NCBI GenBank assembly: GCA_963667875.2
Contig: CAXXGC010000009.1
Coordinates: 474,312-506,311 of the forward strand
DNA from: Melioribacteraceae bacterium
GTDB taxonomy: Bacteria > Bacteroidota > Ignavibacteria > Ignavibacteriales > Melioribacteraceae
DNA length: 32,000 nucleotides
Direction: 5' to 3'
In this document: piece after piece, positions 716-27,838 of the stretch
Position numbering within the stretch: position 1 is the first letter of the stretch
How the letters are laid out: the number at the start of each line of letters is the position of its first letter
The notes under the pieces: generated by a model
The model's input: only the letters and a program-made list of their open reading frames with translations
Database searches by the model: none
Told to the model about the DNA's origin: nothing
Program-made: the position numbers and the translations under genes

Positions 716-2407
716 TTAATTTAGAAGATTGGATGGAGTTATAGTGACTGCATATTTATTTTTATGATTAAAAAAATAGTAACCTTTTGAAGCGGAAATT
801 GTTTCTTTTATAAATTCATGCAAATTTTTATACTTTTTTAATCTGCTTAATGCCCCGCTAATATTCCCCCTGTCGGATTCGCAAAGACCTAATTCATCTT
901 TACCCCAAAGTTTGATGGTTTGGTTTCTTTTTTTCATGAGGGCTTCATCTCCTCTATATCTTACCGATATATCCATGATGTCCGTACTGCTAATTTCATT
1001 TTTACTATTTATGATTATTAGCAAGTATAATAATCCAATGTTTCCATCATCTTTGATAGTTGGAATTTTCCCGAGCCCACTAATAATCCATTCGTCATCT
1101 ACTTTTTCAAAAACAACTTTTTTAGGAGGAGGAGTCTCATCTTGCTTTTTGCGTATTTCTGTTTCATAATTTATTTTTTCTTCTAATAAATACCAAAACT
1201 GGATGTTATTCATTAAATCCTTATATTCGATTTGTGAAAAATCATTGATGCATTTATATAGAATTTCAATATCATCAATTTGTGGAATCACTTTTTCAAG
1301 AAGATTTTTTTCGACAAGCGGATAAAGTCTCCAATAATCATCACCTTGAAAGATATTTCGATCTCTTAATAATGATATAAAAATGCCTGTTATATGTTTT
1401 CTAATCTCGTTGCCTTGTGGAATTTCAATGTTATCATAATAATAAAAATACTTTGAATTAACATTACGGATTGCTTGAAGAATAACATGTGATTGATCTT
1501 CAGTTTCTTTAACCCTTTCGTGTAATTCGTGATAACCGATAGGATCGTTAATACTATCAAAATTTTGAATAACGGCGGATTTATTTTCTGACTGGATTGC
1601 TTTAAGGTCCTTAGGCATTGAATAGTATATTCTATCTTTACCAAATAATATTTGTTCAGTAGCTCTACTAGTTAGAAATGTATCATGTCCATAGAAATGG
1701 AGTTTAGTATTTGAAGTTGAAATGATTTTATAATAGAGACTATTTTCAAAATATTTTAGTGGGTTTACCGGTCTATATTCTCTAAGTTTCCATGGTTTTT
1801 CCGGCATGTTTTCGTTATAATTTTCTCTAGTCTTTACAAGTTCGTTATAAATTTGCAGATATTTTCCTTTACTAATAGAATATGAACCCACTTCCGCCTT
1901 TAATTTTGCCGTATAATTTTCTATCTGAATCAATACTTTGTTATCAGGTAAACTCTCAATTAATATATGAGATGCTTTTTTTATCAATGGACAAAAGAAA
2001 AAGAATGATTTTAGACTTTTAGATAAAGAATTAAGCGTTTTATCATTTTCATAAAATATAATGGATATTTCATTGATTAACGTTTCAATTTTCTTCCTTC
2101 TCTTTTCATTTCGTAATTTAATTGGATAAGGGAAAAAATCGCAAATTTCAGCCATTAATTTTTTTTCATCGGGATAATCTTCAGGATCAGCAGAAAAATT
2201 TCTAAAAATTGCTAAGATAGATGATTCGTCGATTTCAAGCTTCTCAAGTAAAAAAACTATTTCATGTACGTCGTTTAGTAAATTATCGGATAACTGATAT
2301 AATGATTCATAAATAGTACAAGCTTCTTTATATGTGAATGCTTTAACTGCGGCAATATTAATTAATTTGGATGATTCGATGTGTTGATTTTCGTAAATAA
2401 AGATCAT
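716..2407 (-). CDS. hypothetical protein, 563 aa, no motif recognised
   Basis: Long uninterrupted ORF with an ATG start and AAGG (complement of 2413-2416) 5 nt upstream. I recognised no catalytic or nucleotide-binding motif. Overlapping short ORFs 912..1169(+) and 1390..1644(-) are treated as shadows. Confidence 0.75.
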   Translation of the reverse strand: MIFIYENQHIESSKLINIAAVKAFTYKEACTIYESLYQLSDNLLNDVHEIVFLLEKLEIDESSILAIFRNFSADPEDYPDEKKLMAEICDFFPYPIKLRNEKRRKKIETLINEISIIFYENDKTLNSLSKSLKSFFFFCPLIKKASHILIESLPDNKVLIQIENYTAKLKAEVGSYSISKGKYLQIYNELVKTRENYNENMPEKPWKLREYRPVNPLKYFENSLYYKIISTSNTKLHFYGHDTFLTSRATEQILFGKDRIYYSMPKDLKAIQSENKSAVIQNFDSINDPIGYHELHERVKETEDQSHVILQAIRNVNSKYFYYYDNIEIPQGNEIRKHITGIFISLLRDRNIFQGDDYWRLYPLVEKNLLEKVIPQIDDIEILYKCINDFSQIEYKDLMNNIQFWYLLEEKINYETEIRKKQDETPPPKKVVFEKVDDEWIISGLGKIPTIKDDGNIGLLYLLIIINSKNEISSTDIMDISVRYRGDEALMKKRNQTIKLWGKDELGLCESDRGNISGALSRLKKYKNLHEFIKETISASKGYYFFNHKNKYAVTITPSNLLN

Positions 2408-2609: not shown

Positions 2610-3770
2610 TTGAATACAAATCAATTATTGTCAAACCTATGTAATGGGATTATGGAAATTGCATTATTTTTCTCTGGCTCTAAAACACTTTTAGGTGTTA
2701 AATATAATAATGGGAAAATTGAAAATCGAGTTATTGATCCTTTTTTATTATTTAATGATCCATTGACTTTTGTTGATAGATTTATTTTGACGCTAAAAAA
2801 CTGTTTTGATATCCAAAATCCAAAAGAAATAAATCGAATATATTTTGGTATTCAAGGAATTATTAATGAAAAATCAGGGAAAGTAATTAATTGTGAAGCT
2901 CTTGATCAATTAACAATGGCTAAAAGTTATTCCGGATTTTCTTTTAAGGAGAATTTTGGAAAAATTATTGGTGAAGAAAACGTCTTTGTTTTTAATGATA
3001 CTTTGGCTGTTAGTATGGGAGTGGGAGATTTTATGCCAAAAAATAAGTCTACTATTGTATATCTAATTGATAAAGAAACTAGTGTGAGTTATATTAATCA
3101 AATAGGTGGCGTCAAACTAATTGAGCTCGGAAATCTTAAATTGCCAAAAGAATTGGCAGATTCTTCAATTGCTCAACTCGCAGGACCATCTATTCATGAA
3201 ATACTTTTCTCGGGCGACAAAGATGTCTTTGGAACTTATACAACAAATTTTATTGGTTCAGTTCAAGTGTTATTTAGGAGTGTTGACATATTAATAGAAG
3301 TTTTTGCAAAATTAATAGACCCTTGGGTGCCTCTGTTCAATTTATCTAAAAAGCTTTTGGATAAATTTACGTCAGCTTCAAAGAAAACTACGGATAACAG
3401 AGTGTTCGTATGGTCAGTTTATGAAGAATACATCAACAAAAACCAATTGAAAGATTCCGGATTAGGGGAAATTATTTCTTTCCCAAAAGATGAAAATCAA
3501 AAAAATTTAATTCCAATATTGGGGTGTTTCGCGTATCCTAAACAGTTAAAACTTACCAGTCAAACAATTAAAAGAATAGAATACATATCAAATTCTAAAT
3601 CCGTGTATCAATTTACAGAATATTCCGACTTCGAAACTCATTGGAATACAAACCACACTTTCGCAAGTCCGAAAAATGAATACCATATTTTTTATTCTGA
3701 TGATTCAGTAAAAATTCGCAAAATGGCTGATATTAAGGAAAAAAAAGATTTAGAAGAGTTCATTTTTTAG
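2610..3770 (+). CDS. ROK/ASKHA-fold sugar-kinase-like protein with degenerate phosphate-binding motifs and an uncharacterised C-terminal half
   Basis: The layout resembles ROK-family kinases. MEIALFFSGSKTLLGV sits where DIGGT is expected, RIYFGIQGIINEKSGKV resembles igiGvpG.vd..g.v, VFVFNDTLAVSMGV resembles veNDanaaalgE, and IVYLIDKETSVSYI sits where tlGTGiG is expected. The glycine-rich motifs are not conserved. The track start is TTG at 2610; ATG at 2652 (MEIALFF) is an alternative. Confidence 0.45.
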   Translation: MNTNQLLSNLCNGIMEIALFFSGSKTLLGVKYNNGKIENRVIDPFLLFNDPLTFVDRFILTLKNCFDIQNPKEINRIYFGIQGIINEKSGKVINCEALDQLTMAKSYSGFSFKENFGKIIGEENVFVFNDTLAVSMGVGDFMPKNKSTIVYLIDKETSVSYINQIGGVKLIELGNLKLPKELADSSIAQLAGPSIHEILFSGDKDVFGTYTTNFIGSVQVLFRSVDILIEVFAKLIDPWVPLFNLSKKLLDKFTSASKKTTDNRVFVWSVYEEYINKNQLKDSGLGEIISFPKDENQKNLIPILGCFAYPKQLKLTSQTIKRIEYISNSKSVYQFTEYSDFETHWNTNHTFASPKNEYHIFYSDDSVKIRKMADIKEKKDLEEFIF

Positions 3771-4579: not shown

Positions 4580-4825
4580 TTACTTCCTAGCCAATCTCCA
4601 AATACCGTATGTTGCAGCCGCAACTGCTAATGGAGCAGCAGCTGTAATAGCAATGCCTGCCACCATTCCACCTCCAACAACCGATCCAATAGCTGCAAGT
4701 CCTGTTGTGATTCCAGTTGCGCTTAATCCTGCTGTGCCGGCAGCTGCTACGGTCCCAACTGCACCACCTACAGTTGCTGTTCCTGCTACGCCGGCTGCTA
4801 CTTTTGCTTCAGTTTCTTTTTCCAT
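4580..4825 (-). CDS. small Gly/Ala-rich (glycine-zipper-like) membrane protein, 81 aa
   Basis: ATG start with GGGGAG (complement of 4830-4835) 4 nt upstream and the terminator candidate downstream. The sequence is almost entirely G/A/T/V (GxxxG-type spacing) and ends with the basic tail IWRLARK. It forms a local GC-rich island. The Pro/Ala-rich + strand ORF 4653..4901 is its mirror image. Confidence 0.6.
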   Translation of the reverse strand: MEKETEAKVAAGVAGTATVGGAVGTVAAAGTAGLSATGITTGLAAIGSVVGGGMVAGIAITAAAPLAVAAATYGIWRLARK

Positions 4826-5102: not shown

Positions 5103-5711
5103 TTATTGTGTTGACATAAAATACCAAATCGAATCATCCATTACACTTCGTGGTATATTAAGAAAATCGGCTGCATATTCAACAATTTTTTTAATATTAA
5201 AATAATTACTTTCATTAATTCCGGCATTTTTGCAATATGTTATTATATGTCTATCAACAGCTATTGTATCAAGACCTAATAATTTTTGAGTGTAATTTAT
5301 TGTTTTGGGTCCGATCCCCTTTATTGCAATAAGTTCCTGATGATTTCTTAAATCTTTAATGAAATTCTTAAAATCAGTACATTTATTAATATTATGATTT
5401 GATAAAAAGACCAACAAATCTTTCATTAAATTTATTTTTCTTTTATTCTTGCATTGTAAAGCATATTCAATCCCATGAATTTCAATAAAAGCGACATAGT
5501 CTTTTAGTGTATTTTTTTTATTAAGTACATTTAATATAAATGATACACGTGGTAAGACTACATTCTCGTAGCTTAATCCTGCTTGTAAGACAATATCGGT
5601 GAGTAAGGCTCCCATATTATTATAATCGTAAGAATTCTTTTTTACAATTCTTAAATTTGTGCTTGAAATATAATTAGCTAATTTTCTTGCATTTTTTGTT
5701 TCTTCAACCAT
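5103..5711 (-). CDS. HhH-GPD superfamily (endonuclease III-like) DNA glycosylase-like protein, 202 aa, no Fe-S cysteine cluster
   Basis: IKGIGPKTINYTQKLLGLDTIAVDRHI aligns by eye with the Nth segment [28 protein letters not shown]. The lysine (K136) and aspartate (D153) positions are conserved. The C-terminus has no Cx6Cx2Cx5C cluster. The start overlaps the stop of the upstream gene by 8 nt. Confidence 0.6.
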   Translation of the reverse strand: MVEETKNARKLANYISSTNLRIVKKNSYDYNNMGALLTDIVLQAGLSYENVVLPRVSFILNVLNKKNTLKDYVAFIEIHGIEYALQCKNKRKINLMKDLLVFLSNHNINKCTDFKNFIKDLRNHQELIAIKGIGPKTINYTQKLLGLDTIAVDRHIITYCKNAGINESNYFNIKKIVEYAADFLNIPRSVMDDSIWYFMSTQ

Positions 5712-6339
5712 TTATAATTTCTTCCGATATTTTTTTTAACGCATCTATTCGATCAACACAATTTGGGCAAGCTCCACAAGGAATTATATCCGAAGCCTGG
5801 CATGAAAAAGTCCTCCCAATAGGAACTGCAAGTTCAATTCCAATTTGGGCCACTTCATATTTGGTCTTGAATCTGAATGGCATTTGTATTATCTGAGATG
5901 AATTTTGCTTAATAAATACATCAATATTGTTAAAATAATCTGCTGTACAATCAATTTCTTTTGCATGATTACTGTTAATAAATGCCGAAAAAACTTCTTT
6001 GATTCCTAAAGTATTAGCATAAGATAAACCAACTGTCAAAAGGAGTAAATTTCGAAACGGTAATATTAAATCATCCGCAGTAGTGTGAGTTTCCCATAAA
6101 TTTCTTTTATAAATAAAACATGAGTCGGATTTCTTATATAAATTATTAATTGTTATTATTTCAAGGTTTTGTACAACAGTGTTAGGCAAAAGTTCTTTTA
6201 ATGTATCAAGTTCAGTTTTGGCACATATTTGTCCATAATCAACAAATAATGGATAAACATCATATTCTTTCTTTTTTAACCAATATGCAAGCGTCGTAGA
6301 ATCCATACCCCCTGACGCTAATAGTACGCATTTCTTCAT
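5704..6339 (-). CDS. QueC-like PP-loop ATPase (7-cyano-7-deazaguanine synthase family), divergent
   Basis: N-terminal PP-loop VLLASGGMDSTT (SGGMDS = complement of 6298-6315). LPFRNLLLL matches the QueC vPgRNl.fl segment. The C-terminal zinc-type motif SCQ...PCGACPNC matches QueC C..CGxCxxC. The middle region (EIDCTADYF) differs from the canonical YPDCR-type segment as I remember it. A 4-nt ATGA overlap joins it to the upstream gene. Confidence 0.7.
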   Translation of the reverse strand: MKKCVLLASGGMDSTTLAYWLKKKEYDVYPLFVDYGQICAKTELDTLKELLPNTVVQNLEIITINNLYKKSDSCFIYKRNLWETHTTADDLILPFRNLLLLTVGLSYANTLGIKEVFSAFINSNHAKEIDCTADYFNNIDVFIKQNSSQIIQMPFRFKTKYEVAQIGIELAVPIGRTFSCQASDIIPCGACPNCVDRIDALKKISEEIING

Positions 6340-7661
6340 ATTTTCTCGCCGATTAATTCAAATATCTTTGTAATTATTTCATCAAAATCCGCAGATACAA
6401 GATCTGGTAAAAACTTTAACATATTATTTTGCGCGATATTATTAGGATCGTATACGATAACCGATTTGTTTAAGGCTTTAGCATAACCAATTTCAATTAG
6501 GGTGCCGGGGTCATTAAAAATTAATATCGCTAATAATAAATTGCAGCTGTTTATCAGATCTAAGTCTTTATTAAAAATTGTTAGTTTGTCTTTTTCGCTG
6601 GATTGATTATTTATCTCGCCATTTTCTTTAATTGGACGGTGGGGATTAAAATTGTGATATTTTAAGGAATTGTAAACAAAATCAATTATTTGTGTGTCAA
6701 CATAAGAGAAATCTGGAGCCGCCAAATAAATATGAATTTCTGAACGTTTTTCCCATGGTAAAGAAATGCCAACATGGGCATTAATAATCTTTTCGTTAAA
6801 GTTTTTAATAGTACTGATTGCTCTACTAAAATTGTCAATATATGTCGTTCTTGAGTATTCCGAGGCAACGATTGAAGCGACGCGATATTTTAATTCTCCC
6901 AAATATTCGCTACAAATAGAAGCTATATCAAAAACATCACCAACTCCTACAGAATGTGTGATTGTATGTGATTGAGAAGGAATTTTTATTTCTTGTTTAG
7001 TAGAAAAATCATAAACTCTACTACCACCCCTATTCTCTTTTAATACCAAATTTTCAGTTAAATTATTGAATAATTGCACAAATTGATTATAATCAACAAA
7101 ACTTTTATTAAAAAAGGTCGACGAGGTTGAAATGAATATTGTATCAAACTTAAAATTGATGGTCTTAAAGACATCGATGTTTTCCACATCGTTTGATAAA
7201 TCAATGTGAATCTTTTTCCCACAATTTGCAATCCTATTAATATTAGGAATTATATGTTGAAAATTCGATTGACCAACTATTAATAATAAATCTGTTATCG
7301 AAGTAAAATTATAAGATTCAAAATTATTTAGATAATTGATCTTGTATTCATCACGTAATATTAAATCATAGTGTTGGCAACCTATTTCTTTAATTTCATC
7401 AATAGTAATAATATTCGGTGCTCCAGTGACATCACCAATCTTTACCATATTTATACAATTATGTTTTTTAAGAAACATTTCAATGCTTCCATCTAAATAG
7501 GCAGGAGCGTTAAATAAAACATCGTAATCAATTCCCAAAGCATATAAAGCACGTATGGCATGCATTATACCCCCCAATCTCATTTTTCTATTTCCGGATT
7601 TTTCCGGTTTTATATTATAATCAATGAGAATATCACCTAATATGCATATTTTTTTATTCAT
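6336..7661 (-). CDS. fusion protein: N-terminal PfkB-family (ribokinase-like) kinase plus C-terminal nucleoside 2-deoxyribosyltransferase-like (NDT/Rcl-like) domain
   Basis: The kinase part has KICILGDILIDY, RLGGIMHAIRALYALG and HSVGVGDVFD (the PfkB GAGD anion-hole motif, complement of 6939-6950). The C-terminal part (about aa 305-441) has IHIYLAAPDF and NDPGTLIEIGYAKALNKSVIVY. The latter matches the NDT family D.GT..E.G.A..G motif, including the catalytic-type Glu. Confidence 0.65.
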   Translation of the reverse strand: MNKKICILGDILIDYNIKPEKSGNRKMRLGGIMHAIRALYALGIDYDVLFNAPAYLDGSIEMFLKKHNCINMVKIGDVTGAPNIITIDEIKEIGCQHYDLILRDEYKINYLNNFESYNFTSITDLLLIVGQSNFQHIIPNINRIANCGKKIHIDLSNDVENIDVFKTINFKFDTIFISTSSTFFNKSFVDYNQFVQLFNNLTENLVLKENRGGSRVYDFSTKQEIKIPSQSHTITHSVGVGDVFDIASICSEYLGELKYRVASIVASEYSRTTYIDNFSRAISTIKNFNEKIINAHVGISLPWEKRSEIHIYLAAPDFSYVDTQIIDFVYNSLKYHNFNPHRPIKENGEINNQSSEKDKLTIFNKDLDLINSCNLLLAILIFNDPGTLIEIGYAKALNKSVIVYDPNNIAQNNMLKFLPDLVSADFDEIITKIFELIGEKI

Positions 7662-8037
7662 GTTGTGGAGTCAATGAAATTTTAATGATAGCAATTGGCT
7701 TATCATTTGAATAATCAACTATTCCTCTATATTCAACACCTTCTGTCATACATCGCATCAAATAATTATATTTAGTTGGTAAATAACCCAAGGTTAAATT
7801 ATCTTTAATATTATATGCTTCTATTCTGGAATTAAAACGTATAGAAACCTCTGTGTTAAATACAGGGACATTGTGATTATTAATATAATAATCGCATTTT
7901 TCGATTTCTTCAAGAGATGTAGAAATTGCCTTAAGACAAATATCATCTGAACTACTACCACCCGCTCCTTCAACCCCTGTCTTAGTGTTATCATATGAAT
8001 GATAATCGCTAAAGTGACCAGTACCAGTACTACCCAT
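7654..8037 (-). CDS. small hypothetical protein (127 aa from ATG 8037), N-terminus MGSTGTG, C-terminal half weakly HIRAN-like
   Basis: The track gives a TTG start at 8049, which would place the GGAGGT motif (complement of 8042-8047) inside the coding region. ATG at 8037 sits 4 nt downstream of that motif and is preferred. The stop overlaps the next gene start by 8 nt (ATGAATAA). LTLGYLPTKYNYLMRCMTEGVEYRGIV resembles the HIRAN pattern iGYlp...a..l..l.d.g....g.v. This similarity was judged by eye only. Confidence 0.6.
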   Translation of the reverse strand: MGSTGTGHFSDYHSYDNTKTGVEGAGGSSSDDICLKAISTSLEEIEKCDYYINNHNVPVFNTEVSIRFNSRIEAYNIKDNLTLGYLPTKYNYLMRCMTEGVEYRGIVDYSNDKPIAIIKISLTPQHE

Positions 8038-8281
8038 TTTTACCTCCAATTATTCATTATTTAATTCTTGTTAATATTTAGTTAAAATATAAATAATTAA
8101 TCGGCTTAATATAGTAATAATTTTTTAAAATTATATAAATGTTTTACTTTTTTTTAATAATAATTAAATCTAAAATTTAATTATTGCCTTTCTTATTAAA
8201 AAATTATAAATTATACTCATACAATAATATATTAACTAAATAATAAATTTAATCTGGTTTTTTGACATAAATTGAATAAAA

Positions 8282-9466
8282 ATGAATAAAAAGATAAAAA
8301 TTCAATTAAATAAATTCCCTCAAGTGCCAAATAAGCTTAGAGAAAATAGTCCTTCTAATATTGTAAAAGATGAAGTTACTATTAAATTATCAAGATTATA
8401 TTATCACTATTACCTCGATTTTTGGGGAATAATACAATCGCATTTTACTTATAAGAATTCGGATATTTTTGAGTATTTAGTCAAATCTCCTGATTTTAGA
8501 TTCCATTTAAATGGTACGACGATTAATTCTGATCATAAGCGGATAGTTTCATATTTACTTGGACAAGCTTTTTGTAGGTATTTTTTGTACGAATTTTGTG
8601 GTATTACATATTTTGCACATATGGATAAGATAATAGATAAAACAACTCATCCTGCTTTTAATGGATTAAGAATTCAGAGAGCACTAACAGGGGATATCCC
8701 TGATTATCTATGTGCAAGGAAGGTAGATGAACCTTATATTGCAGAAGCTAAAGGTCGGTTTAATAATATAAATTTTAATTCACTTGAATTTGCAAAGTGG
8801 AGAAAACAATTTGAAAATATTATTATCTTGGATAAATCAGGGAAAAATTGTAAAATAAAGGGATTTATAGTGGCTACAAAGTTCGTAACTGATCAAAATA
8901 TAAATTCAAATAGATCAACAATTATGGCAGAAGATCCTGAAACAGGTGGGGATAATATTGGTACACGCGTAAATGGTAGTATAGGAAGGGGCTGTATTGC
9001 GATTCATTATTCTAATGTAGCCGAAAAGTTGGGTTTGCCATTAATTTCACAAGTTCTTGGAGGGAACATTATCATTAGTGAAAATTTAATTATTAAATTA
9101 CCATTATATAAATGCTTACACCCCAAATTAGAAGGTCAATCCTTTATTTCAGGTCGCAGATTCTTTGGTGAACTCAGGTGGTCAGAATTCTTCGTAAGAG
9201 AAAATTATATAATGAAAAAACTTGAGAATTCGTTAGGTGTTAACCATCCGCTATTCTTCGGATTACATCTCGATACTTTTAAGTTTCTAATAAAAGCATG
9301 TACTGTTAATTGGAATTTTCTTTCGGAAATTACTCCGTTGGAAGATGTTGAAGACGAAGAGGAGAATTTAATGTTGCTGAGAGATGGGACTGTTTCTGGA
9401 AATTTAAACTTATTTGAATTTGTAGAGCAACGAGAATTTAGACTAGGAGAATTCGAAACAATCTAA
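8282..9466 (+). CDS. hypothetical protein with PD-(D/E)xK nuclease-like motif, 394 aa
   Basis: ATG start. GDIPDYLCARKVDEPYIAEAKGRF gives a PD...(13 aa)...E-A-K arrangement typical of restriction-endonuclease-fold active sites. It is divergently transcribed from the QueC-like operon across a 230-bp AT-rich spacer. Confidence 0.45.
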   Translation: MNKKIKIQLNKFPQVPNKLRENSPSNIVKDEVTIKLSRLYYHYYLDFWGIIQSHFTYKNSDIFEYLVKSPDFRFHLNGTTINSDHKRIVSYLLGQAFCRYFLYEFCGITYFAHMDKIIDKTTHPAFNGLRIQRALTGDIPDYLCARKVDEPYIAEAKGRFNNINFNSLEFAKWRKQFENIIILDKSGKNCKIKGFIVATKFVTDQNINSNRSTIMAEDPETGGDNIGTRVNGSIGRGCIAIHYSNVAEKLGLPLISQVLGGNIIISENLIIKLPLYKCLHPKLEGQSFISGRRFFGELRWSEFFVRENYIMKKLENSLGVNHPLFFGLHLDTFKFLIKACTVNWNFLSEITPLEDVEDEEENLMLLRDGTVSGNLNLFEFVEQREFRLGEFETI

Positions 9467-9557
9467 AATAATAGAGAATTATTATGATAATTTTGTTCAT
9501 TAATATTTTTTTAGTGAAATTTGCACAATACAATTTTAAAAAAATCATTATTCGTGT

Positions 9558-10133
9558 CTAAGTATTTGATAAAATAGGCCAACCATAAATAAATCGCCAT
9601 GCTGCCTCAATTGCAATTCTTGTGTTTTTGTTTTCGAGATATCTCTTTATTTGTTGCTTTTGGCTAGGATTTAAACTTTCCAAATTTGGTAAACTTGCAA
9701 TTGAAAAATAAGAGGCTTGCCACTCTTGGTTTGATAAATTATAATACTTAATTCCTAAAGCTCCTGTGGAATTACTATTAACAAAAAAATGTGCACGGAG
9801 CCTGGAAAGGATTTTGTCAGCTTCTCCGTTATAAATTACATTTAACTTTGCAAATCTATGACAAATATTACTAGTAAATAATGAGTTGCCATTAGCCCTT
9901 TGGCTCCAAACGATTGCATTGTCAGGGAGATCACTGGGGGTTGCTAATTTTCTTAACTTATCTATGGAGTAATCAACTTGAAACCAATAAAGTCCTTGAC
10001 TGTTATAATAGTCCAATGATTTATTTGTAAACCACTTTCTTAAGAAAGTTTCAGTTTCCCATGCACTCGTGCCTCCAAAGTCCACAATTTCTCTATTCTC
10101 CCAACAAGCGGATGCAATCTGTGATAAAGTCAT
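9558..10133 (-). CDS. GIY-YIG nuclease-like protein, 191 aa
   Basis: GGAG lies 5 nt upstream of the ATG. VIYNGEADKILSRLRAHF (complement of 9786-9833) matches the Y-x-G-x-A-x5-R-x3-H-F spacing of I-TevI YVGSAKDFEKRWKRHF. The C-terminal IAIEAAWRFIYGWPILSN matches the GIY-YIG E...P..N helix. The first (GIY) strand is ambiguous. Confidence 0.4.
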   Translation of the reverse strand: MTLSQIASACWENREIVDFGGTSAWETETFLRKWFTNKSLDYYNSQGLYWFQVDYSIDKLRKLATPSDLPDNAIVWSQRANGNSLFTSNICHRFAKLNVIYNGEADKILSRLRAHFFVNSNSTGALGIKYYNLSNQEWQASYFSIASLPNLESLNPSQKQQIKRYLENKNTRIAIEAAWRFIYGWPILSNT

Positions 10134-10255
10134 TAAATCTCCAAATTAATTTTTGATTAAGTTAATAGTTTTGCATTTAAACTTTAGATGTAAACTATAA
10201 AATATACGAATTGTATTCTCCAGTTAAAAGAGGGTTGTGTTATTTGAAAATCTAA

Positions 10256-11617
10256 TTAAAAAGGTGCAATACCCGATAATTCGTGAAATAGTTTAATTGC
10301 GTAAGTGTCGGTCATTCCACTTATAAAATCAGTAATCAATAATAATTTTTTATATTTCTCGTTACCATATTTCTCAAATTTATTATTAATAAATTCATAA
10401 TTTTTTGATACTAATGCATTGAATTTACCCGGTATTGTTCGAGTATCGTCTTTTGATTCTGAAAATAATGAATCAGTAAAATATTTTAGATGAAATTTTA
10501 ATGCAGCTTGTCCGGCTAATTCACGTTTCAACACCGTTGGATGATTGAAATTATTTTTTGCTAATTTCTTGAACAGTTTGCGTATGTTAGCTGCATCTGA
10601 TGCCAATACTAAATCTTCATCAAATTCACCATTAATTATTCGTTCATAATTGTTTATAAAACAATCAACCGCTGCAACAATTAATGACGATTGAGAGCGT
10701 ATTCTATAATACTGAATTAATAGAATGAAATCAGCAGGATGATCTTTTGGTATTTTGTTTTTGTATTCATCTAAAACCTTATGTTCATTCTCTTTCTCTG
10801 AGCCTAACAAATTTTTATCAATATTATCTCTAAGCGTTTTTTCAGTTATAATCCCTTTTTTACAACCATCTTCAATATCTGAAACTGAATAAGCAATGTC
10901 ATCAGCTGCTTCGAGCAAAAATACTAATGGATGTCTTTTATTCCCTAAACCTAAACTATCTGAAATTATTTGAAAATCATCTTTTTCGGCTTGGAAATAA
11001 CCAAACTTTTTTTCACTTGATTTTGTACTCGCTTGCTTATTACCACTTATTGAAGAATGTGGGTATTTTATGATTGATGACAAAGTTGGAAATGTTAAGT
11101 TATAGCTATACTCATCAATAGCGGGTCCTAATTTTCGGAGTATTCGCAAAGTTTGGGGATTGCCCTCAAATTTTAAAAAATCATTTTTTTCTTCTTCATT
11201 CAAATCATCTAATATTTCGCTATGCGTAAAGAAATCTTGAATGCATGTTTCACCGAAATGACCAAAAGGTGGGTTCCCAATATCGTGTAATAATCCAGCA
11301 GTTGATAATAAAGAAGGAATATATCCTAAGGACTTCTCTGGAAGTTCCTTAAGCTCATATAATCTTTTTTCTACAGCCAACCCAAGACTTCTTGCAAAAC
11401 ATGATACTTCGATAGAATGTGTTAATCTAGTTCTCACAAAATCACTATCATCATAGGGGAATACTTGGGCTTTATCCTGTAACCTTCGGAAATGTGGAGA
11501 TAAAATAATTCTGGAATAATCATTATCAAAATGATTTCTAGCATCATTGTCTATAATACTGCTACGTGTATTTCTAAATCTTTTGTTTTGTAAAAGTTTT
11601 TCCCAATCTGCTTTCAT
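10256..11617 (-). CDS. dgt: dGTP triphosphohydrolase-family HD-domain protein (dGTPase-like)
   Basis: FRRLQDKAQVF, RLTHSIEVSCFARSLG and LLHDIGNPPFGHFGE are the classic Dgt/HD motifs, and DDIAYSVSDIEDG is the conserved DD motif. I prefer ATG at 11617 (MKADWEKLL), which leaves a 25-nt gap to the upstream gene. The track start at 11680 would overlap that gene by 38 nt. Confidence 0.85.
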   Translation of the reverse strand: MKADWEKLLQNKRFRNTRSSIIDNDARNHFDNDYSRIILSPHFRRLQDKAQVFPYDDSDFVRTRLTHSIEVSCFARSLGLAVEKRLYELKELPEKSLGYIPSLLSTAGLLHDIGNPPFGHFGETCIQDFFTHSEILDDLNEEEKNDFLKFEGNPQTLRILRKLGPAIDEYSYNLTFPTLSSIIKYPHSSISGNKQASTKSSEKKFGYFQAEKDDFQIISDSLGLGNKRHPLVFLLEAADDIAYSVSDIEDGCKKGIITEKTLRDNIDKNLLGSEKENEHKVLDEYKNKIPKDHPADFILLIQYYRIRSQSSLIVAAVDCFINNYERIINGEFDEDLVLASDAANIRKLFKKLAKNNFNHPTVLKRELAGQAALKFHLKYFTDSLFSESKDDTRTIPGKFNALVSKNYEFINNKFEKYGNEKYKKLLLITDFISGMTDTYAIKLFHELSGIAPF

Positions 11618-11642
11618 ATTATTTCCAATTTTATTTATGCAA

Positions 11643-11876
11643 TTACTCCTTATCCTTTGGTGGGCATGGATCATTCCCATAGCTATTCTTTTCGGAAATT
11701 TGTCCGTTTTTATTGTGGATGATTAATTCGGATTCTTGGTTTTTAGCTATTTCTTTAGCTTTTTCGACGGCTTCTTCTTTTGTCTTGGTTACTTTTGTGG
11801 CTTTTGAATTGTGTTCACCCTTAACCTGCCAACCATTTGGGTGTTTGGTTACATGCTGATTTTTACCCTTTGACAT
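11643..11876 (-). CDS. DUF2188-like small protein, 77 aa
   Basis: HVTKHPNGWQVKGEHNSKATKVTKTKEEAVEKAKEIAKNQESELIIHNKNGQISEKNSYGNDP follows the DUF2188 pattern (hv.p...gW.vk.e...ra...f.tkeeAi..a.eiAk......l.iH..dG.i......g.Dp). It sits directly upstream of, and probably co-transcribed with, the dGTPase gene. Confidence 0.65.
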   Translation of the reverse strand: MSKGKNQHVTKHPNGWQVKGEHNSKATKVTKTKEEAVEKAKEIAKNQESELIIHNKNGQISEKNSYGNDPCPPKDKE

Positions 11877-12228: not shown

Positions 12229-12960
12229 ATGGTTAAAAAGTTAAAATCTACAGTACATACTGCCCGAACTATAATGTTTGAAGAATTGTCCAGAGTTATT
12301 AATAGTACTATTGATGATAATAAGTATATTGATTCCCTTAATGATAATATTGCCGGCAAACAAACAAAAACAAATCAAAAAAGAACTAACTCGGCTCTTT
12401 TAAGTTTATATAAGCTTGATATAAACTATACTCCCTTTTTATGTTTTAAGTATTTTTGGCAAATGGCTGATGAAAAAGAGCTGCCGATAATTACTTTGTT
12501 ATACGCAATTTGCAATGATTATTTACTTAATGAAAGTACCGATGTAATACTTTCAACACCAATTGGTGAAAAAGTTGAAAAACTAAAGTTAGAAGAGAAC
12601 ATCGAATTATTTAATCCCAACAAATATACCCCAAAAACCAAAGGGTCTTCCACAAGGAATTTAATTAGTTCGTGGAAACAAGCCGGGTATATTTCCAACG
12701 ATAAATTATGTACACGTAAGGAACAAAATCACACGTACCGGACTGTGGCGTTTGCCTTTTTAATGGCATATTTAAGTGGTGAAAGAGGAGATTTTATATT
12801 ATCAAGTAAATGGGTAAAAACACTTGCGTTAAACGATTCACGAATACGTGAATTTGCCTCGGAAGCGTCAAAACGTGATTTGCTTAAATATCAGTATGCG
12901 GGTAATGTATCTGTAATTTCTTTTGACAATCTTTTCAAAAGGTTAAATATAAATGTCTAA
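12229..12960 (+). CDS. brxA: BREX protein BrxA (DUF1819-type), called mainly by position
   Basis: First gene of a canonical brxA-brxB-brxC-pglX-pglZ-brxL array, with an 8-nt overlap onto brxB. I did not verify specific DUF1819 residues. Confidence 0.65.
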   Translation: MVKKLKSTVHTARTIMFEELSRVINSTIDDNKYIDSLNDNIAGKQTKTNQKRTNSALLSLYKLDINYTPFLCFKYFWQMADEKELPIITLLYAICNDYLLNESTDVILSTPIGEKVEKLKLEENIELFNPNKYTPKTKGSSTRNLISSWKQAGYISNDKLCTRKEQNHTYRTVAFAFLMAYLSGERGDFILSSKWVKTLALNDSRIREFASEASKRDLLKYQYAGNVSVISFDNLFKRLNINV

Positions 12961-13498
12961 CTTAGTGGATCGTCTTTTAACAGCGGTTGATATTGTGCTT
13001 CGAGAACCTTGGGCTACTTCGTTATCCGGGAAAGAACGAATGTGGTTTCTTGTTTACGATCCCGCCGAACAAAGGAAAATAAATTTACGCTTGGGAGATT
13101 TTGAATCCGTAGCAGTTAAAGCAGGTAAAAAGTGGATTGAGATCTCTTTTAAGAATGTTTTCCCAACTTGGATGGCAAACCATGAGTACAGGGATGAGTA
13201 TTTTATGGATCCCGATGGGTTAGTGGATCAACTTGAAGCGGATTTTAAAAATTATGCAATTAACCATTGCATTAAAGAACTTAATAAACTTGGGACAGAT
13301 AATAATACCTTAATTGCACTTAAAGATGTATCCTCTTTGTTTGGATTTGTAAGGTTATCTTCAGTTTTAGACGGAGTAGCCAATTCATTTAATGGCAGGG
13401 TGCTTGTTTTTTTTCCGGGTGAATTTGAAAAAAATAATTATAGATTGTTAGATGCCAGAGATGGCTGGAGTTATTTGGCACGACCAATTATTGCATAG
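12953..13498 (+). CDS. brxB: BREX protein BrxB (DUF1788-type)
   Basis: Size (181 aa), position between brxA and brxC, and the N-terminal segment ERMWFLVYDPAEQRKINLRL typical of DUF1788 proteins as I recall them. Confidence 0.7.
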   Translation: MSNLVDRLLTAVDIVLREPWATSLSGKERMWFLVYDPAEQRKINLRLGDFESVAVKAGKKWIEISFKNVFPTWMANHEYRDEYFMDPDGLVDQLEADFKNYAINHCIKELNKLGTDNNTLIALKDVSSLFGFVRLSSVLDGVANSFNGRVLVFFPGEFEKNNYRLLDARDGWSYLARPIIA

Positions 13499-13510
13499 GA
13501 GATTTTGGTT

Positions 13511-16500
13511 ATGAAAAACAATGAACTTTTTACTCTTAATCCTTCTGAAAATAATCTGATAAACGATGGTGTAGTAGAAATTAACACCGCAAAAGATGAC
13601 AAAGGGTTACAGATATTACATCACGAAATTAAGACATTTGTTTGTGAAGGCGAATATCAGAACGGCATTTATAGAATTTTGGATACTTACCTAAAACATC
13701 TTAATCAACCCAAACAACCGGCGGCTTGGGTAAGCGGATTTTTTGGAAGCGGTAAATCTCATCTGGTAAAAATACTTGGTTATTTATGGGAAGATTTTGT
13801 TTTCCCTAACGGAGATACCGCAAGAACATTAAAACCTTTACCTGCGGATATAAAAGATTTATTAGTAGAGTTAGATAGAAAGCAAAAGATATATGGTAAA
13901 CTTGCTGTTTCGGGTACACTTAAAGACTTTCCATCCGCGGATATTAGATATTCGTTTTTACAGTTATTCCTTAACGCCCTTGATCTTCCGCCTCAGTATC
14001 ATCATTTTAAGTTTGTTTATTGGGCAAAACAAGAAGGTATTTATGACGATCTTAAAACTATTATTGAAACTCAGGGTAAAGATTTTAGAAAAGAATATGA
14101 AAATCTATTTGTCTCTTCAACACTTGCAAAAGCCGTTTTACAATTAAAACCTGAATTTGCCGAAAATGAAGCAAAAGTAAAAGAAAATTTTAAGGCAAAT
14201 TTCAAAAGGGTTGATAATATTAACCGACAAGAATTAATTGATACTATAAAAAATGAAGTATTGCCATTAACTTTTGGCGATAAAGTGCCATGTACAATAA
14301 TTGTGTTGGATGAAGTACAACAATTTATTGGAACCGATGGAAATAAAACAATAGATATCCAAAATCTTGCCCAAGATATATGCAGTAATTTTGACAGTAA
14401 ATTTTTGCTTGTTGGTACAGGTCAAAACGCTCTTTCCGAAACACCGTTTTTACAACCTTTGCAGGATCGTTTTACAATAAAAGTTTCGTTATCGGATACT
14501 GATGTTGAAACTGTTACAAGAAAAACCGTATTAGAAAAAAAACCGTCGGTAGTTGCTACAATTAATAACAAACTGGAATCCGTATTGGGCGAAATATCGC
14601 GCAATTTGTCGGGTACCGAATTTGGTTATGTTACAAGTGAAAGAAATACTCTAGTTGCCGATTATCCTATTTTACCGGCTACGCGAAAATTTTGGAAAAA
14701 AATTCTTCAATCAATTGATACAGCCGGTACTTCGGGCCAGCTTAGAAGCCAGCTTAGGATAGTTGATGAGAGCATTAAACATGTAGCTGAAAAAGAACTT
14801 GGGGTTGTTGTTCCAGCGGATTTTATATTTGAACAAAAGCAGCAACAGCTTTTACAAAACGCATTATTATTAAATGAAACAAACAATATTATACAGGAAC
14901 GTAAAGTTAAAGGTGGCGATTCGCTTTTAGAGGGACGTATTTTAAGTGTTGTGTTTTTAATTGATCAACTGCCAAATGATTTACCAGGCGGTATTCTCAA
15001 ATCGGATGGAGTTACTATTGAAAACTTACTTATTGAAAACTTAAATGAATCATCCGATATCATAAGAAATAAAGTAAAAGAACTTATTAAAAAAATGGTT
15101 GAGGAAAAAGTTCTTATGCTTGTTAATGATGAATATAAATTACAAACAAAAGTTGGGGCTGAATGGGAACAAGAATATACAGCTCATGCTGTTAATATTA
15201 ATAGTACCGGTGATGATAAAATTCAACAAATTAGAAAAGATAAAATCAGCCGATTTTTTAAGGATAAAACCAAAACAATTAATATTCTGCATGGCAATTC
15301 AAAACAAAGAAGAGAATTTGAAATTTGGGACAAAACAGAAAAACCCAATTTGGAAAATAAACTTAATATTTGGATACGCGACGGTTGGTTTGAAAATGAA
15401 CTTGTAGTGTTAAACGAAATTAGAGCTGAAGGAGCCGATAAACCTTTAGCATATACTTTTGTTAGAAAATTACGCGATATGGATTTGCGTTTGGAAATTA
15501 TTAAATATATAGCTGCCGATTTAACAATTCAATCCAAAGGGCTTCCTTCAACACCGGAAGGTGAACAAGCAAAAAAAAGTATGGAAACGCGCAAAGAAAT
15601 GGCTAATAAAACGATTGAAGATATAGTTGAAAAAATATGTAATGATTCCATTGTATATTTAGCCGGAGGGAATAAAGTTGAAGTGGGTGACACAAAAGCC
15701 AACATTGACGAAGCACTTAATAATATTGCGGATAGACAGTTCCCCGAATTTAGAAGTAAAGCGGATTACAAAGATTGGGATAGGGCTTTATTAAAAGCTA
15801 TTGCAGGCGAACCTGATGCGTTAAAGAAAATTTTATGGGATAAAGAACCAAAAGACCACCCTATGGCAATAGAAATTCTCCGTTTAATAGGTAATAATAA
15901 TATTACGGGAAAAGAAATACGAAATTATTTTACAAAGTCGCCTTATGGATGGAGTCAGGATGCTATTGATACAATTATAATAATGCTTAAAAATACAGAA
16001 CACATATCAGCATCGGAGCCTTTAATTAATCAGTCAAAAATAGCTAACTCGGTTTTCAAAAAAGAAATCCATACTATTTCGGCATCCGAAAGAATAAGAA
16101 TTAGAAAGTTATATCAAGAAACCGGTATTATGTGTAAACCGGGCGAAGAGTTTTTACATTCAAACACATTGTTTAATAAATTAAAAGAATTAGCATCAGG
16201 AATTAGCGGAGATGCTCCAAAACCCGAACCGATTAATATCCAATTTATTAAAGAAATTGAAAATTTAGATGGTAATGAAAGGTTGCTGCGGATTGTTGAA
16301 GAGCAAGAAGACTTAAAAAATAAATATCTTGAATGGAAAAATAAACTTGAATTAATTAAAAAACGAGAACCTCAATGGATTTTATTAAGTGAATTAGCAA
16401 AATATGCTTCATCTCTACAAGATGTTGATTCTCTGCTTGCGGAAATAGAGGCGATAAATGAAAACCGTTTGATTTTAATGGAACCCGATCCTATTCAGCC

Positions 16501-16942
16501 CAAATTGTTAGCTATTGTTGATAAATTAAAAGCAAGATTAAATGAATTAAAGGAAGAATATATAACCCTATATGATTTGAAAATGAATAATTTGCAAGCA
16601 AATGAATATTTTGTAAAACTTCCTCAAACACAAAAACATTTTATCCTTGCCAAACATCAATTATTAAAAAAACCGGAAATAAAAGCATTAGACGCAAATA
16701 CGCTTAAAAACGAATTATTACAAGTATCTTTGACGGGTTGGGAAACAAAAATTGCTGCGTTGTTAAGCCAATTTGAATCAGCTACGGAAGATTCAATAAA
16801 GTTATCGGTACCCGAAGCCGAAACATTTTTATTGCCTAGAAGGACTATTAATACAGCCGGAGATATTGAAATATACATACACGAAATTAAGACAAAATTA
16901 GATAAATTAATAAAAAATGGGAAATCGATTATCCTTAAATAG
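13511..16942 (+). CDS. brxC: BREX P-loop ATPase BrxC/PglY
   Basis: About 1140 aa. Walker A is GFFGSGKSH (13736-13762) and Walker B-like is CTIIVLDEVQQF, followed by a long helical C-terminal region. I prefer ATG 13511 with AGGAG (13497-13501) 9 nt upstream; the track uses TTG 13505. Confidence 0.85.
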   Translation: MKNNELFTLNPSENNLINDGVVEINTAKDDKGLQILHHEIKTFVCEGEYQNGIYRILDTYLKHLNQPKQPAAWVSGFFGSGKSHLVKILGYLWEDFVFPNGDTARTLKPLPADIKDLLVELDRKQKIYGKLAVSGTLKDFPSADIRYSFLQLFLNALDLPPQYHHFKFVYWAKQEGIYDDLKTIIETQGKDFRKEYENLFVSSTLAKAVLQLKPEFAENEAKVKENFKANFKRVDNINRQELIDTIKNEVLPLTFGDKVPCTIIVLDEVQQFIGTDGNKTIDIQNLAQDICSNFDSKFLLVGTGQNALSETPFLQPLQDRFTIKVSLSDTDVETVTRKTVLEKKPSVVATINNKLESVLGEISRNLSGTEFGYVTSERNTLVADYPILPATRKFWKKILQSIDTAGTSGQLRSQLRIVDESIKHVAEKELGVVVPADFIFEQKQQQLLQNALLLNETNNIIQERKVKGGDSLLEGRILSVVFLIDQLPNDLPGGILKSDGVTIENLLIENLNESSDIIRNKVKELIKKMVEEKVLMLVNDEYKLQTKVGAEWEQEYTAHAVNINSTGDDKIQQIRKDKISRFFKDKTKTINILHGNSKQRREFEIWDKTEKPNLENKLNIWIRDGWFENELVVLNEIRAEGADKPLAYTFVRKLRDMDLRLEIIKYIAADLTIQSKGLPSTPEGEQAKKSMETRKEMANKTIEDIVEKICNDSIVYLAGGNKVEVGDTKANIDEALNNIADRQFPEFRSKADYKDWDRALLKAIAGEPDALKKILWDKEPKDHPMAIEILRLIGNNNITGKEIRNYFTKSPYGWSQDAIDTIIIMLKNTEHISASEPLINQSKIANSVFKKEIHTISASERIRIRKLYQETGIMCKPGEEFLHSNTLFNKLKELASGISGDAPKPEPINIQFIKEIENLDGNERLLRIVEEQEDLKNKYLEWKNKLELIKKREPQWILLSELAKYASSLQDVDSLLAEIEAINENRLILMEPDPIQPKLLAIVDKLKARLNELKEEYITLYDLKMNNLQANEYFVKLPQTQKHFILAKHQLLKKPEIKALDANTLKNELLQVSLTGWETKIAALLSQFESATEDSIKLSVPEAETFLLPRRTINTAGDIEIYIHEIKTKLDKLIKNGKSIILK

Positions 16943-16973
16943 TTTAGTTGGTTAAAACAAAGAGAAAAAGGTT

Positions 16974-27602: not shown

Positions 27603-27838
27603 ATTGCTCATTGAAAAATTATTACTGTAAGTTTTATGTTTTATCATATTCAATGTCTTATAATAAATGGTGGAATATAATTGTTAAAAACAAACAAAAG
27701 TGACACAATTTGTACTCACTACAAAACTAAATATTTAACTGTTATATATTACAAAAAATAATGGTTGTTCTTCTTGAACACATAACAAATACAATAACAT
27801 TAAAATAAATGTAATTACAATCTTTGGGAGAAAACAAA

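Follow-up and report, generated by a model that had tools for sequence, protein, structure and literature searches.

The stretch of DNA analysed here (the window) comprises 32,000 nucleotides from the genome of a Melioribacteraceae bacterium of the Bacteroidota (assembly GCA_963667875.2, contig CAXXGC010000009.1, positions 474,312 to 506,311 of the forward strand) and carries on its minus strand a run of four overlapping genes, which we term S, K, Q and O in their 5' to 3' order. They code for a small protein of 127 residues (S, 7654-8037), a 441-residue fusion of a PfkB-like kinase and a nucleoside 2-deoxyribosyltransferase (NDT) domain (K, 6336-7661), a 211-residue member of the QueC family (Q, 5704-6339) and a 202-residue protein resembling 8-oxoguanine DNA glycosylases (O, 5103-5711). 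A first-pass annotation, made from the letters of the sequence, had viewed these genes as a candidate undescribed defence or modification system built around the QueC-like enzyme. The four-gene module is indeed previously unrecognised, whereas the adjacency of a QueC-like gene with a PfkB-NDT gene is not new, having been published in 2026 as 'Cluster 4' of the family PF06508 (Libby et al. 2026, PMC13329287). We argue below that the four genes are most likely a single self-contained and horizontally mobile module that acts as an anti-phage defence system.

The arrangement recurs widely, as had been proposed as a check on its significance. A strict signature of Q, scanned against one genome per species, was found in 165 of 185,579 species genomes. 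In the locus set used throughout this work (80 kept loci and 2 more, 82 in all) K is present in all 82, S in 79 and O in 70, and the order S-K-Q-O on one strand is preserved in 68 loci from more than 10 phyla, most of the exceptions being contig ends. The hosts belong to the Bacteroidota, Bacillota, Pseudomonadota, Acidobacteriota, Planctomycetota, Chloroflexota and Verrucomicrobiota, and further to the Actinomycetota, Spirochaetota, Chlorobiota, Desulfobacterota, TM6 and Mycoplasmatota. Moreover, pairwise divergence in any one of the four proteins correlates with that in the others (Spearman 0.49-0.78), and taken together these observations place the one-strand arrangement far beyond chance. 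Genes other than these four are almost never common to different loci, the flanks being hypervariable, and the full module is found in 24 of 25 IMG/VR contigs. The combination of four conserved genes with unshared flanks marks the module as self-contained and horizontally mobile.

The overlaps between the genes, read directly from the sequence, agree with those first reported: the stop codon of S and the start codon of K share 8 nucleotides (ATGAATAA), K and Q overlap by 4 (ATGA) and Q and O again by 8 (ATGGTTGA). Of the operon span originally given, the 5103 end stood and the 8049 end had to be corrected to 8037. The listed open reading frame (ORF) of S (7654-8049, 131 residues) opens with a TTG at 8049 that lies inside TTGGAGGTAAAAATG, as part of a GGAGG Shine-Dalgarno sequence (8043-8047, minus strand) situated 5 nucleotides upstream of an ATG; the start was therefore moved to this ATG at 8037, which is most likely the genuine one. 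An independent gene call on an identical contig also gives 127 residues, and the S homologues in all 79 loci that have one align from Met-Gly, which fits this start. A scan for promoters and terminators showed no enrichment over shuffled sequences, and no operon boundaries were taken from it.

Components of the cassette

Q is recognised both by PF06508 (E=6.6e-35) and by the PADLOC QueC model (E=3e-24), and its homologues are currently named '7-cyano-7-deazaguanine synthase' at NCBI, those of S and O being 'hypothetical'. It shares with canonical QueC the fold, the PP-loop, the RN motif and the zinc ribbon, with family-invariant versions of the SGGxDS motif (SGGMDS, residues 9-14, 6298-6315, minus strand) and the VPxRN-type motif (LPFRN, residues 93-97). 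However, it scores 98.8 bits against the NCBIfam equivalog TIGR00364, whose cut-off lies at 150.3, and departs from QueC at three catalytic or metal-binding positions: EIDC stands in place of YPDC, the aromatic residue of which is essential in Escherichia coli QueC (Y131A is inactive); YGQICAKTE (YGQHCxxTE in the family, that is, YGQ(x)5E) stands in place of YxQxHxxE; and the zinc ligands are spaced C(x)7CxxCxxCxD rather than C(x)8CxxCxxC. On these grounds membership in canonical QueC was rejected and, in line with the first-pass annotation, Q is, judged by its sequence, not a housekeeping QueC.

The closest likeness of Q is to Cap9, the QueC-like enzyme of the type IV cyclic-oligonucleotide-based antiphage signalling systems (CBASS), which is its best sequence match in the PDB (9nto_B, E=2e-13); no QatC chain was found among PDB sequences at E<=0.01. 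The best structural matches of the Q model are QueC 3bl5, Cap9 and QueC 2pg3. Q has the Cap9 versions of the YxQ(x)5E and zinc motifs, the latter being SCQ(x)6CGACPNCVDR (5749-5805, minus strand) with the Cap9-type spacing (motifs per PMC13329287). All four Cap9-type motifs tested, namely YxQ(x)5E, RN, PF(x)4K and C(x)7CxxCxxCxD, are present, and the H(x)4YxDC motif of Cap9 is partly kept as H(x)4DC. The most characteristic feature of Q is the signature FINSNHAKEIDC (residues 120-131, 5947-5982, minus strand), which is invariant in 24 of 24 sequences and found in 81 of 82. Its D130 aligns with D117 in the 'yDC' of Cap9, a residue that hydrogen-bonds the conjugated base according to the type IV CBASS work. 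Domain scans and Rfam revealed neither queD, queE, queF or tgt nor a preQ1 riboswitch in the window or in the sampled loci, the Rfam scan of the loci giving nothing relevant to the module. [quoted passage not shown]

S gave no Pfam, PADLOC or NCBIfam match, and a single-sequence search of a 5.8-billion-protein database returned S alone, so that its family had to be gathered by profile, in an exhaustive search of 1.84 billion cluster representatives. The resulting 313 representatives are all of 92-202 residues, with profile matches beginning at residue 1 in most of them and none fused to another domain: S is always a standalone protein. Its AlphaFold2 model (mean predicted local distance difference test score, pLDDT, 81.7) falls into two parts. 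Residues 1-28 (7954-8037, minus strand) consist of the Met-Gly N-terminus MGSTGTGHFSDY and a Gly/Ser-rich tail modelled as disordered (pLDDT 40-49). In each of the 79 loci with S, the N-terminus conforms to MGS[ST]G[ST]Gx[FL]x[DN]Y (a 12-residue motif, MGSxGxGxFxDY), with M1 and G2 invariant and S3, G5, G7 and Y12 at least 90% conserved. Among the 150 best representatives of the wider family 131 begin with Met-Gly and about 14 with ME, MD or MC; across the family, 20-53 residues separate the N-terminus from the first conserved cysteine of the fold.

The remainder of S (residues 30-127, 7657-7950, minus strand) is beta-rich and modelled as folded (pLDDT >90), and we assign to it, with moderate confidence, a predicted HIRAN-like fold. 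Foldseek against the PDB lists HIRAN domains in all of its top 16 places, those of HLTF with and without DNA and of the bacterial lp_0118 (probability 1.00, root-mean-square deviation ~2.7 A over ~100 columns, E=1.7e-3 to 1.1e-2), and the first non-HIRAN match follows at E=0.2. Weak matches to the Pfam HIRAN model (PF08797) in 5 of 61 members, the best at E=0.012, are also the commonest weak Pfam match of the family. Unlike this predicted fold, which agrees with HIRAN structures including the DNA-bound ones, the sequence has no significant similarity to them: the family profile found no significant match among PDB sequences and the NPYD-type motif that binds 3' ends is not evident in S. HIRAN domains bind free 3'-OH ends of DNA, and the known ones are either fused to helicases or nucleases or standalone, without a modified N-terminal tail.

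This tail recalls the N-termini of proteins that are modified by, or enter, QueC-family enzymes. CdnD of type IV CBASS (MGGSGGSFGSGFD, MGGS), with its base on Gly2, has a comparable Met-Gly, Gly/Ser-rich and disordered N-terminus, and QatB of the QatABCD system (MGTS) has a Met-Gly start on an unstructured tail. S combines the Met-Gly start, the long unstructured tail and the location beside a QueC-family enzyme that have been used to recognise deazaguanylation substrates (PMC13279940). By analogy, Gly2 of S is the proposed site of conjugation.

Evidence bearing on this proposal comes from the representatives that depart from Met-Gly. We fetched five loci in which S starts with ME or MD (MES or MDS genes at L115:4453-4839, L117:6001-6420, L118:1636-2037, L119:2279-2653 and L120:1046-1477), all of which keep the order S-K-Q-O. 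The Q signature, in its general form NSNHAxExDC, is found in 81 of the 82 MG-type loci and is rewritten in all five ME/MD-type loci (ESNLAPGLDC, QSDLATG-DA, ETHRAPGNDC, DGDYVRELDS and DSNVALGADC); in four of these five the SCQ of the zinc motif has likewise become SCL. The changed residues directly precede D130, as would be expected if the N-terminus of S occupies the active site of Q, and the co-variation of Q with residue 2 of S thereby lends indirect support to such a placement. A possible steric explanation is that Glu or Asp at position 2 blocks the removal of Met, and that the bulky Met acceptor left behind would call for smaller residues in the pocket. Of the three roles considered by the first-pass annotation, the attachment of a deazapurine to the small protein is hence the best supported, by the invariant Met-Gly tail and by this co-variation; the building of a modified nucleoside or nucleotide most likely combines with it, taking place here on the protein-bound base, and base exchange or excision in DNA is possible through the HIRAN-like and Ogg-like parts.

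K begins with a PfkB-like kinase domain (residues 1-295, 6777-7661, minus strand) displaying the motifs RLGG (28-31), KENRGG (208-213) and SVGVGD (237-242), of which GG, KENRGG and SxGxGD are invariant. Pfam gave no match to this half of the window protein at E<=1; the family profile (55 sequences) picks up PfkB kinases in the PDB (2qcv, E=2.8e-4; the ribokinase 6ilr, E=6.5e-3), and the architecture PF00294-PF05014 is given for the neighbours of the Cluster 4 QueC-like proteins (PMC13329287). The NDT domain that follows (residues 305-441, 6339-6749, minus strand) matches PF05014 at E=3.1e-16 (60 bits; cut-off 28.8), and a PDB search with the family profile retrieves the NDT 6evs at E=7.6e-11. 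Its motifs YLAAPDF (312-318) and DPGTLIE (384-390) hold the invariant Y312, D317 and putative nucleophile Glu390 (DxGTxxE). PADLOC v2 has no model for either S or K, and no homologues of K were found in GenBank phages.

The family profile of O retrieves Ogg2-type 8-oxoguanine glycosylase/apurinic-apyrimidinic lyases from the PDB (9o00, 3fhg, 3fhf and 3knt; E=3e-7 to 9e-6), and the PADLOC OGG (Cap11) model matches 31 of 57 O proteins (best E=4e-8); the NCBIfam N-glycosylase/DNA lyase model gives E=5.7e-6 and 25.9 bits, below its 183-bit cut-off. The helix-hairpin-helix GIGPKT (K136) and the VDRH motif (D153), at 5247-5318 (minus strand), hold the catalytic Lys/Asp pair of bifunctional HhH-GPD enzymes, and G132, G134, K136, D153, R154 and H155 are invariant in the 57 sequences. 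By family profile, O is a predicted Ogg2-type HhH-GPD glycosylase/lyase-like protein akin to Cap11. All four domain assignments made at the outset are thus supported, by family profiles in the case of O and the kinase half of K, with PfkB, a tentative assignment, the weakest of them.

All 8 complete Bacillales loci that are without O (L050, L055, L063, L067, L068, L069, L071 and L073) have instead a Nudix gene directly upstream of S on the same strand (PF00293, E ~1e-19; also the PADLOC candidate PDC-S07), whose closest named relatives, none reaching its cut-off, are MutT and (d)NTP diphosphatases. The OGG-like O and the MutT-like Nudix look mutually exclusive. Cells classically dispose of an aberrant guanine in two ways, by Ogg when it is in DNA and by MutT when it is in the nucleotide pool, and by analogy the alternation fits a working species that is a guanine-analogue nucleotide. 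The Bacillaceae also provide a tie between two of the components: K and Q form one protein of ~660 residues in four Bacillaceae loci (L067:8636-10633, L068:8651-10633, L069:8651-10621 and L073:8651-10633) and on three Bacillus megaplasmids (NZ_CP022446.1, NZ_CP036100.1 and NZ_CP042875.1), a Rosetta-stone link between the kinase-NDT protein and the QueC-like enzyme.

Mobility and defence context

The suspected location of the module in a defence island was confirmed by a dGTPase (10256-11680, minus strand; PADLOC dGTPase E=5e-73; TIGR01353 315 bits, above cut-off) and a complete type 1 bacteriophage exclusion (BREX) system (brxA, brxB, brxC, pglX, pglZ and brxL; 12229-25524, plus strand) in the window, and an excisionase and an integrase are found just beyond the window start. 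In other loci the module lies beside AbiL and an NsnB-like ATPase with a PIN-like protein. Further neighbourhoods combine it with Abi_C, SymE, a TIR-STING CBASS and an integrase, with SRA-HNH, an Mrr-helicase, a SNIPE nuclease and an integrase, or with a relaxase and an integrase next to smpB; insertion sequence (IS) elements accompany it in Proteus and a methyltransferase-helicase on a 70-kb plasmid. A PADLOC scan of 150 immediate neighbours (241 families) was used qualitatively, without per-protein counts. At the DNA level, the module has no match in 5,426 E. coli genomes.

The window dGTPase lies 2.2 kb upstream of the module, and a dGTPase borders the module directly in 9 of the 81 other loci (~11%) from several phyla; such genes stand beside the module in L025, L026, L027, L030, L055, L061, L063, L076 and L077, and two genes downstream in L115. 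With identities to each other of only 21-45%, these dGTPases are not one orthologous lineage, which implies that the association arose repeatedly, and a place for the dGTPase among the core parts was rejected on the same ground. The window dGTPase is possibly a facultative partner that supplies deoxyguanosine, or else a separate defence gene. In four loci the dGTPase is followed by a nucleotidyltransferase of ~240 residues with a PolyA_pol head domain (L030:12903-13622, L055:4978-5709, L063:12227-12946 and L076:5782-6585), making a recurrent dGTPase-nucleotidyltransferase pair beside the module; the window gene at the equivalent position (191 residues, 9558-10133) is unrelated to those.

In seven Bacteroidota loci (L002, L005, L006, L013, L016, L021 and L088) two genes directly upstream of S code for an AAA_15/AAA_21 ATPase, with NsnB as its best PADLOC match, and a PIN_3-like protein of ~170 residues; the pair is a two-gene defence system in its own right or else a lineage-specific addition. 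In the IMG/VR contig L104 the module (8281-11299) follows, ~6 kb downstream, genes for tail assembly and host specificity (844-2161) that resemble those of Caulobacter and other alphaproteobacterial siphophages, a typical position for cargo at a prophage end. A Lachnospiraceae locus has a DUF3800-XI small RNA (RF02975, 62.6 bits; L042:11402-11449, plus strand) ~120 nucleotides downstream of O. In the window itself, a divergent 394-residue gene beside S (8282-9466) was considered as a fifth component and rejected, having no homologue in any of the 82 loci. Just downstream of O, an ORF of 81 residues (4580-4825, minus strand), Gly/Ala-rich and probably membrane-embedded, is conserved only in two near-identical contigs (L001 and L003) and not in the wider family. 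The BREX system includes a 323-residue ORF without family match between pglX and pglZ (20193-21164) and is directly followed, after brxL, by a 680-residue ORF without match (25560-27602); further downstream lies a member of the 8xMP octameric membrane protein family (PF24838, E=1.2e-35; 28904-29698, plus strand). Six sizeable window ORFs that have no Pfam, PADLOC or NCBIfam match, at 716-2407 (minus), 2610-3770 (plus), 8282-9466 (plus), 9558-10133 (minus), 27824-28822 (plus) and 30461-31075 (plus), are candidates for further defence genes.

Proposed mechanism and competing explanations

Protein deazaguanylation was discovered in 2025 and is known in type IV CBASS and in QatABCD, the fate of the tagged N-terminus being open in both. 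In type IV CBASS the QueC-like Cap9, the TGT-like Cap10 and the OGG-like Cap11 act on CdnD, which carries a 7-deazaguanine base on Gly2, and the authors of that work speculated that the free N9 of the base might receive a ribose or enter nucleic acid (Wassarman et al. 2025, 10.1101/2025.04.06.647259). The present module sets a deoxyribosyltransferase and a sugar or nucleoside kinase, the very enzymes that such a step on N9 would call for, beside a Cap9-like enzyme and a candidate substrate with a Met-Gly tail, and adds to them a predicted DNA-end-binding fold and two alternative erasers of the guanine-lesion type.

From the observed module, domains, tail, co-variation and context we infer the chemical steps and the phage phenotype of the following scheme. 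We would give an even chance to the module being a deazaguanylation-type system in which Q tags Gly2 of S, K adds a (deoxy)ribose and a phosphate, and O or the Nudix protein reverses the modification. Methionine aminopeptidase would expose Gly2 of S, and Q would, in the manner of Cap9, adenylate the carboxylate of host-made 7-carboxy-7-deazaguanine (CDG) or a close derivative; attack by the Gly2 amine would then leave an amide-linked base on the flexible S tail of ~30 residues. As N9 of this base would stay free, the NDT domain of K could glycosylate it with a 2-deoxyribosyl (or ribosyl) group, and phosphorylation of that sugar by the attached PfkB kinase would yield a guanine-nucleotide analogue tethered to the protein. 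In loci with a dGTPase next to the module, this enzyme might supply the deoxyguanosine donor. A reversed sequence is also possible, in which free CDG is the first target of K and the resulting nucleoside is what Q ligates. Through the HIRAN-like domain the tethered analogue would reach 3' ends of DNA, there to block replicating (phage) DNA or be joined to it. Finally, O would remove the base-protein adduct at the glycosidic bond, and in Bacillales the MutT-like Nudix would cleave the nucleotide form at its phosphoanhydride, either of them acting to erase the modification, as a negative regulator or for self-protection.

Since polymerases accept 7-deaza-dGTPs substituted at C7, a joining to DNA is chemically conceivable. 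The most specific version of the scheme, wherein a 7-deaza-2'-deoxyguanosine nucleotide tethered to S is joined to, or plugs, the 3' ends of phage DNA, with O and Nudix as erasers and the dGTPase as supplier of the donor, is a tentative one, to which we attach a rather low probability.

Several points weigh against the deazaguanylation scheme. On the side of the substrate, Gly2 is missing in ~9% of the S representatives, the co-variation with Q comes from five loci that may be a single clade and hence counts as one to a few events, and the HIRAN-like call, itself of moderate confidence, stems from one AlphaFold2 model with Foldseek matches at E ~2e-3 and no significant sequence match. On the side of the enzymes, the stacking Tyr of Cap9 and QueC is missing from Q, and the PfkB assignment is weak to moderate for the window K. 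The NDT-like domains known from other defence systems act as hydrolases and not as transferases. As to context, the dGTPase neighbours may reflect co-localisation in islands rather than partnership, and the defence-island setting is drawn from sampled loci, without a background rate. It is also known from the QatABCD literature that QatC does not use CDG in vitro.

Of the alternatives, the likeliest retains the tagging of S by Q and recasts K as an effector: its NDT pocket would only bind the tagged tail, and infection would release K as an N-glycosidase or kinase that depletes NAD+, dNMPs or nucleosides in an abortive infection, with O resetting the system. There is a precedent in Cap10, in which a base-exchange enzyme fold has been remodelled as a receptor for the tagged CdnD N-terminus, and in Cap11, the deletion of which raises CBASS toxicity; moreover, no other obvious effector is seen among the four genes. 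Retron systems include NDT-like effectors whose activity is the hydrolysis of NAD+ or nucleotides. However, genuine transferases are the nearest match of the NDT domain in K (6evs), and no retron effector chain is among its PDB matches. Sequential chemistry on one substrate is suggested by the invariance of both catalytic centres in K and by the serial fusion of its kinase to a nucleoside-forming domain and, in Bacillaceae, also to Q. The alternation of OGG and Nudix is likewise easier to explain with a glycosidic bond and a phosphoanhydride on the tag. We accordingly hold this alternative to be unlikely.

A second alternative dispenses with a protein-bound base: the module would produce a soluble 7-deazapurine (deoxy)nucleoside or nucleotide, a toyocamycin/tubercidin-like or dPreQ0-type antimetabolite that poisons phage replication, and S would be a sensor or regulator rather than a substrate. 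A QueC-family enzyme together with a nucleoside-forming enzyme, a kinase and a Nudix protein does recall the pathways of 7-deazapurine nucleoside antibiotics. NDT and PfkB enzymes normally act on free nucleosides, and an adjacent dGTPase could feed deoxyguanosine. Against this, Q is without the aromatic residue needed for preQ0 formation and falls below the QueC cut-off, neither queD, queE and folE nor an exporter travels with the module, and both the invariant Met-Gly tail of the never-fused S and its co-variation with the Q motif would go unexplained. This makes the free-metabolite alternative a little more doubtful than the preceding one. A housekeeping role without involvement in conflict, in purine or 7-deazapurine salvage or in oxidised-guanine (GO-type) sanitation and repair, for which one might cite the published purine-salvage reading of the QueC-like/PfkB-NDT pair (PMC13329287) and the DNA-repair or pool-sanitation relatives of Ogg, MutT-like Nudix, dGTPase and HIRAN, is very improbable in view of the sporadic distribution among the species scanned with closely similar versions across phyla, the hypervariable flanks with integrases, relaxase, IS elements, prophage genes and many defence systems, the lack of a riboswitch and the absence from the E. 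coli genomes.

Returning to the deazaguanylation scheme, its interest is that a compact four-gene cassette found in many phyla makes the question of the fate of the tag directly testable. If confirmed, the module would be a defence system absent from PADLOC v2 and a third kind of QueC-based antiviral system. The present findings also correct the names '7-cyano-7-deazaguanine synthase' for Q and 'hypothetical' for S and O, as well as the 'purine salvage' label of the pair. If the tethered-nucleotide version is true, it would represent nucleobase-mediated conjugation of a protein with a nucleotide or DNA as an antiviral weapon, and would show the purpose of a deazaguanylated N-terminus, which is open for type IV CBASS and Qat.

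Relationship to known systems

The one prior record found of part of the module is the Cluster 4 group of PF06508, where a QueC-like protein coupled with a PfkB-NDT protein was read as likely to function in purine salvage (Libby et al. 2026, PMC13329287). The two groups share a QueC-like enzyme ~10 residues shorter than QueC that keeps SGGxDS and YGQ...E, and a PfkB-NDT fusion, encoded in the same operon in ~88% of the Cluster 4 neighbourhoods and in all 82 loci here. In contrast, the published zinc motif CH(x)5CxxCxGCxK differs from the CQ(x)6CxxCxxCxDR of Q, the published YGQ(x)6E from YGQ(x)5E, and the Cluster 4 proteins are mostly from Proteobacteria with nitroreductase neighbours, such neighbours not being seen in our loci. 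The small protein and the glycosylase, for which there are no Pfam models, are not noted there. The Q proteins of the module and Cluster 4 are probably the same or sister families, an identity that is likely but unproven because of the different zinc motif. Beyond Cluster 4, the literature on deazaguanylation, on QueC with PfkB and on HIRAN with deoxyribosyltransferase gave no further record of the module.

With the Dpd system, which modifies DNA with 7-deazaguanine by means of the DNA transglycosylase DpdA, DpdB/C and the preQ0 pathway, and with the pathways of 7-deazapurine nucleoside antibiotics the module would have in common the chemistry of the QueC step and the placement of a 7-deazaguanine on a sugar. 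Those pathways differ in needing a TGT-like DpdA or a phosphoribosyltransferase together with queD and queE, all absent from the module, and have no protein substrate. A TGT-like domain is found neither in the operon nor in its conserved neighbours, and membership in Dpd was rejected on that basis.

The likeness to QatABCD (PMC13279940, PMC13376578, PMC13639016) lies in a minimal core pair of a QueC-family enzyme and a non-enzymatic partner with an unstructured MG(T/S) N-terminus. In Qat, the unstructured N-terminus of QatB enters the active site of QatC, and the mutation G2D of QatB abolishes defence. However, QatC is extended at both its N- and C-terminal ends, to ~400 residues as against the 211 of Q, and its active-site motifs are remodelled; QatB is all-helical and unrelated to S; and neither the QatA ATPase nor the QatD TatD nuclease is part of the module. 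A PADLOC scan of the module gave no Qat matches and, with the size of Q, the missing QatA and QatD and the lack of a QatC match, membership in QatABCD was rejected.

Type IV CBASS presents the closest parallel. Common to both are a small QueC-family enzyme with Cap9-type motifs, an OGG-like accessory gene (Cap11 in about one third of type IV CBASS systems, O in 70 of our 82 loci), the location in defence islands and, as we infer for the module, a dependence on a 7-deazaguanine precursor made by the host. Unlike type IV CBASS, the four genes and their conserved neighbours include no CD-NTase, cyclic-nucleotide effector or TGT-like Cap10, for which reason membership was rejected. The place of Cap10 is taken by the PfkB kinase-NDT fusion, the proposed substrate is the 127-residue HIRAN-like S, a protein not related to CdnD, Q has EIDC where Cap9 has YxDC, and a Nudix alternates with the OGG-like gene. 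Judged by analogy, the module appears to resemble type IV CBASS and Qat at the first step, the attachment of a base to a Met-Gly N-terminus, while being a member of neither.

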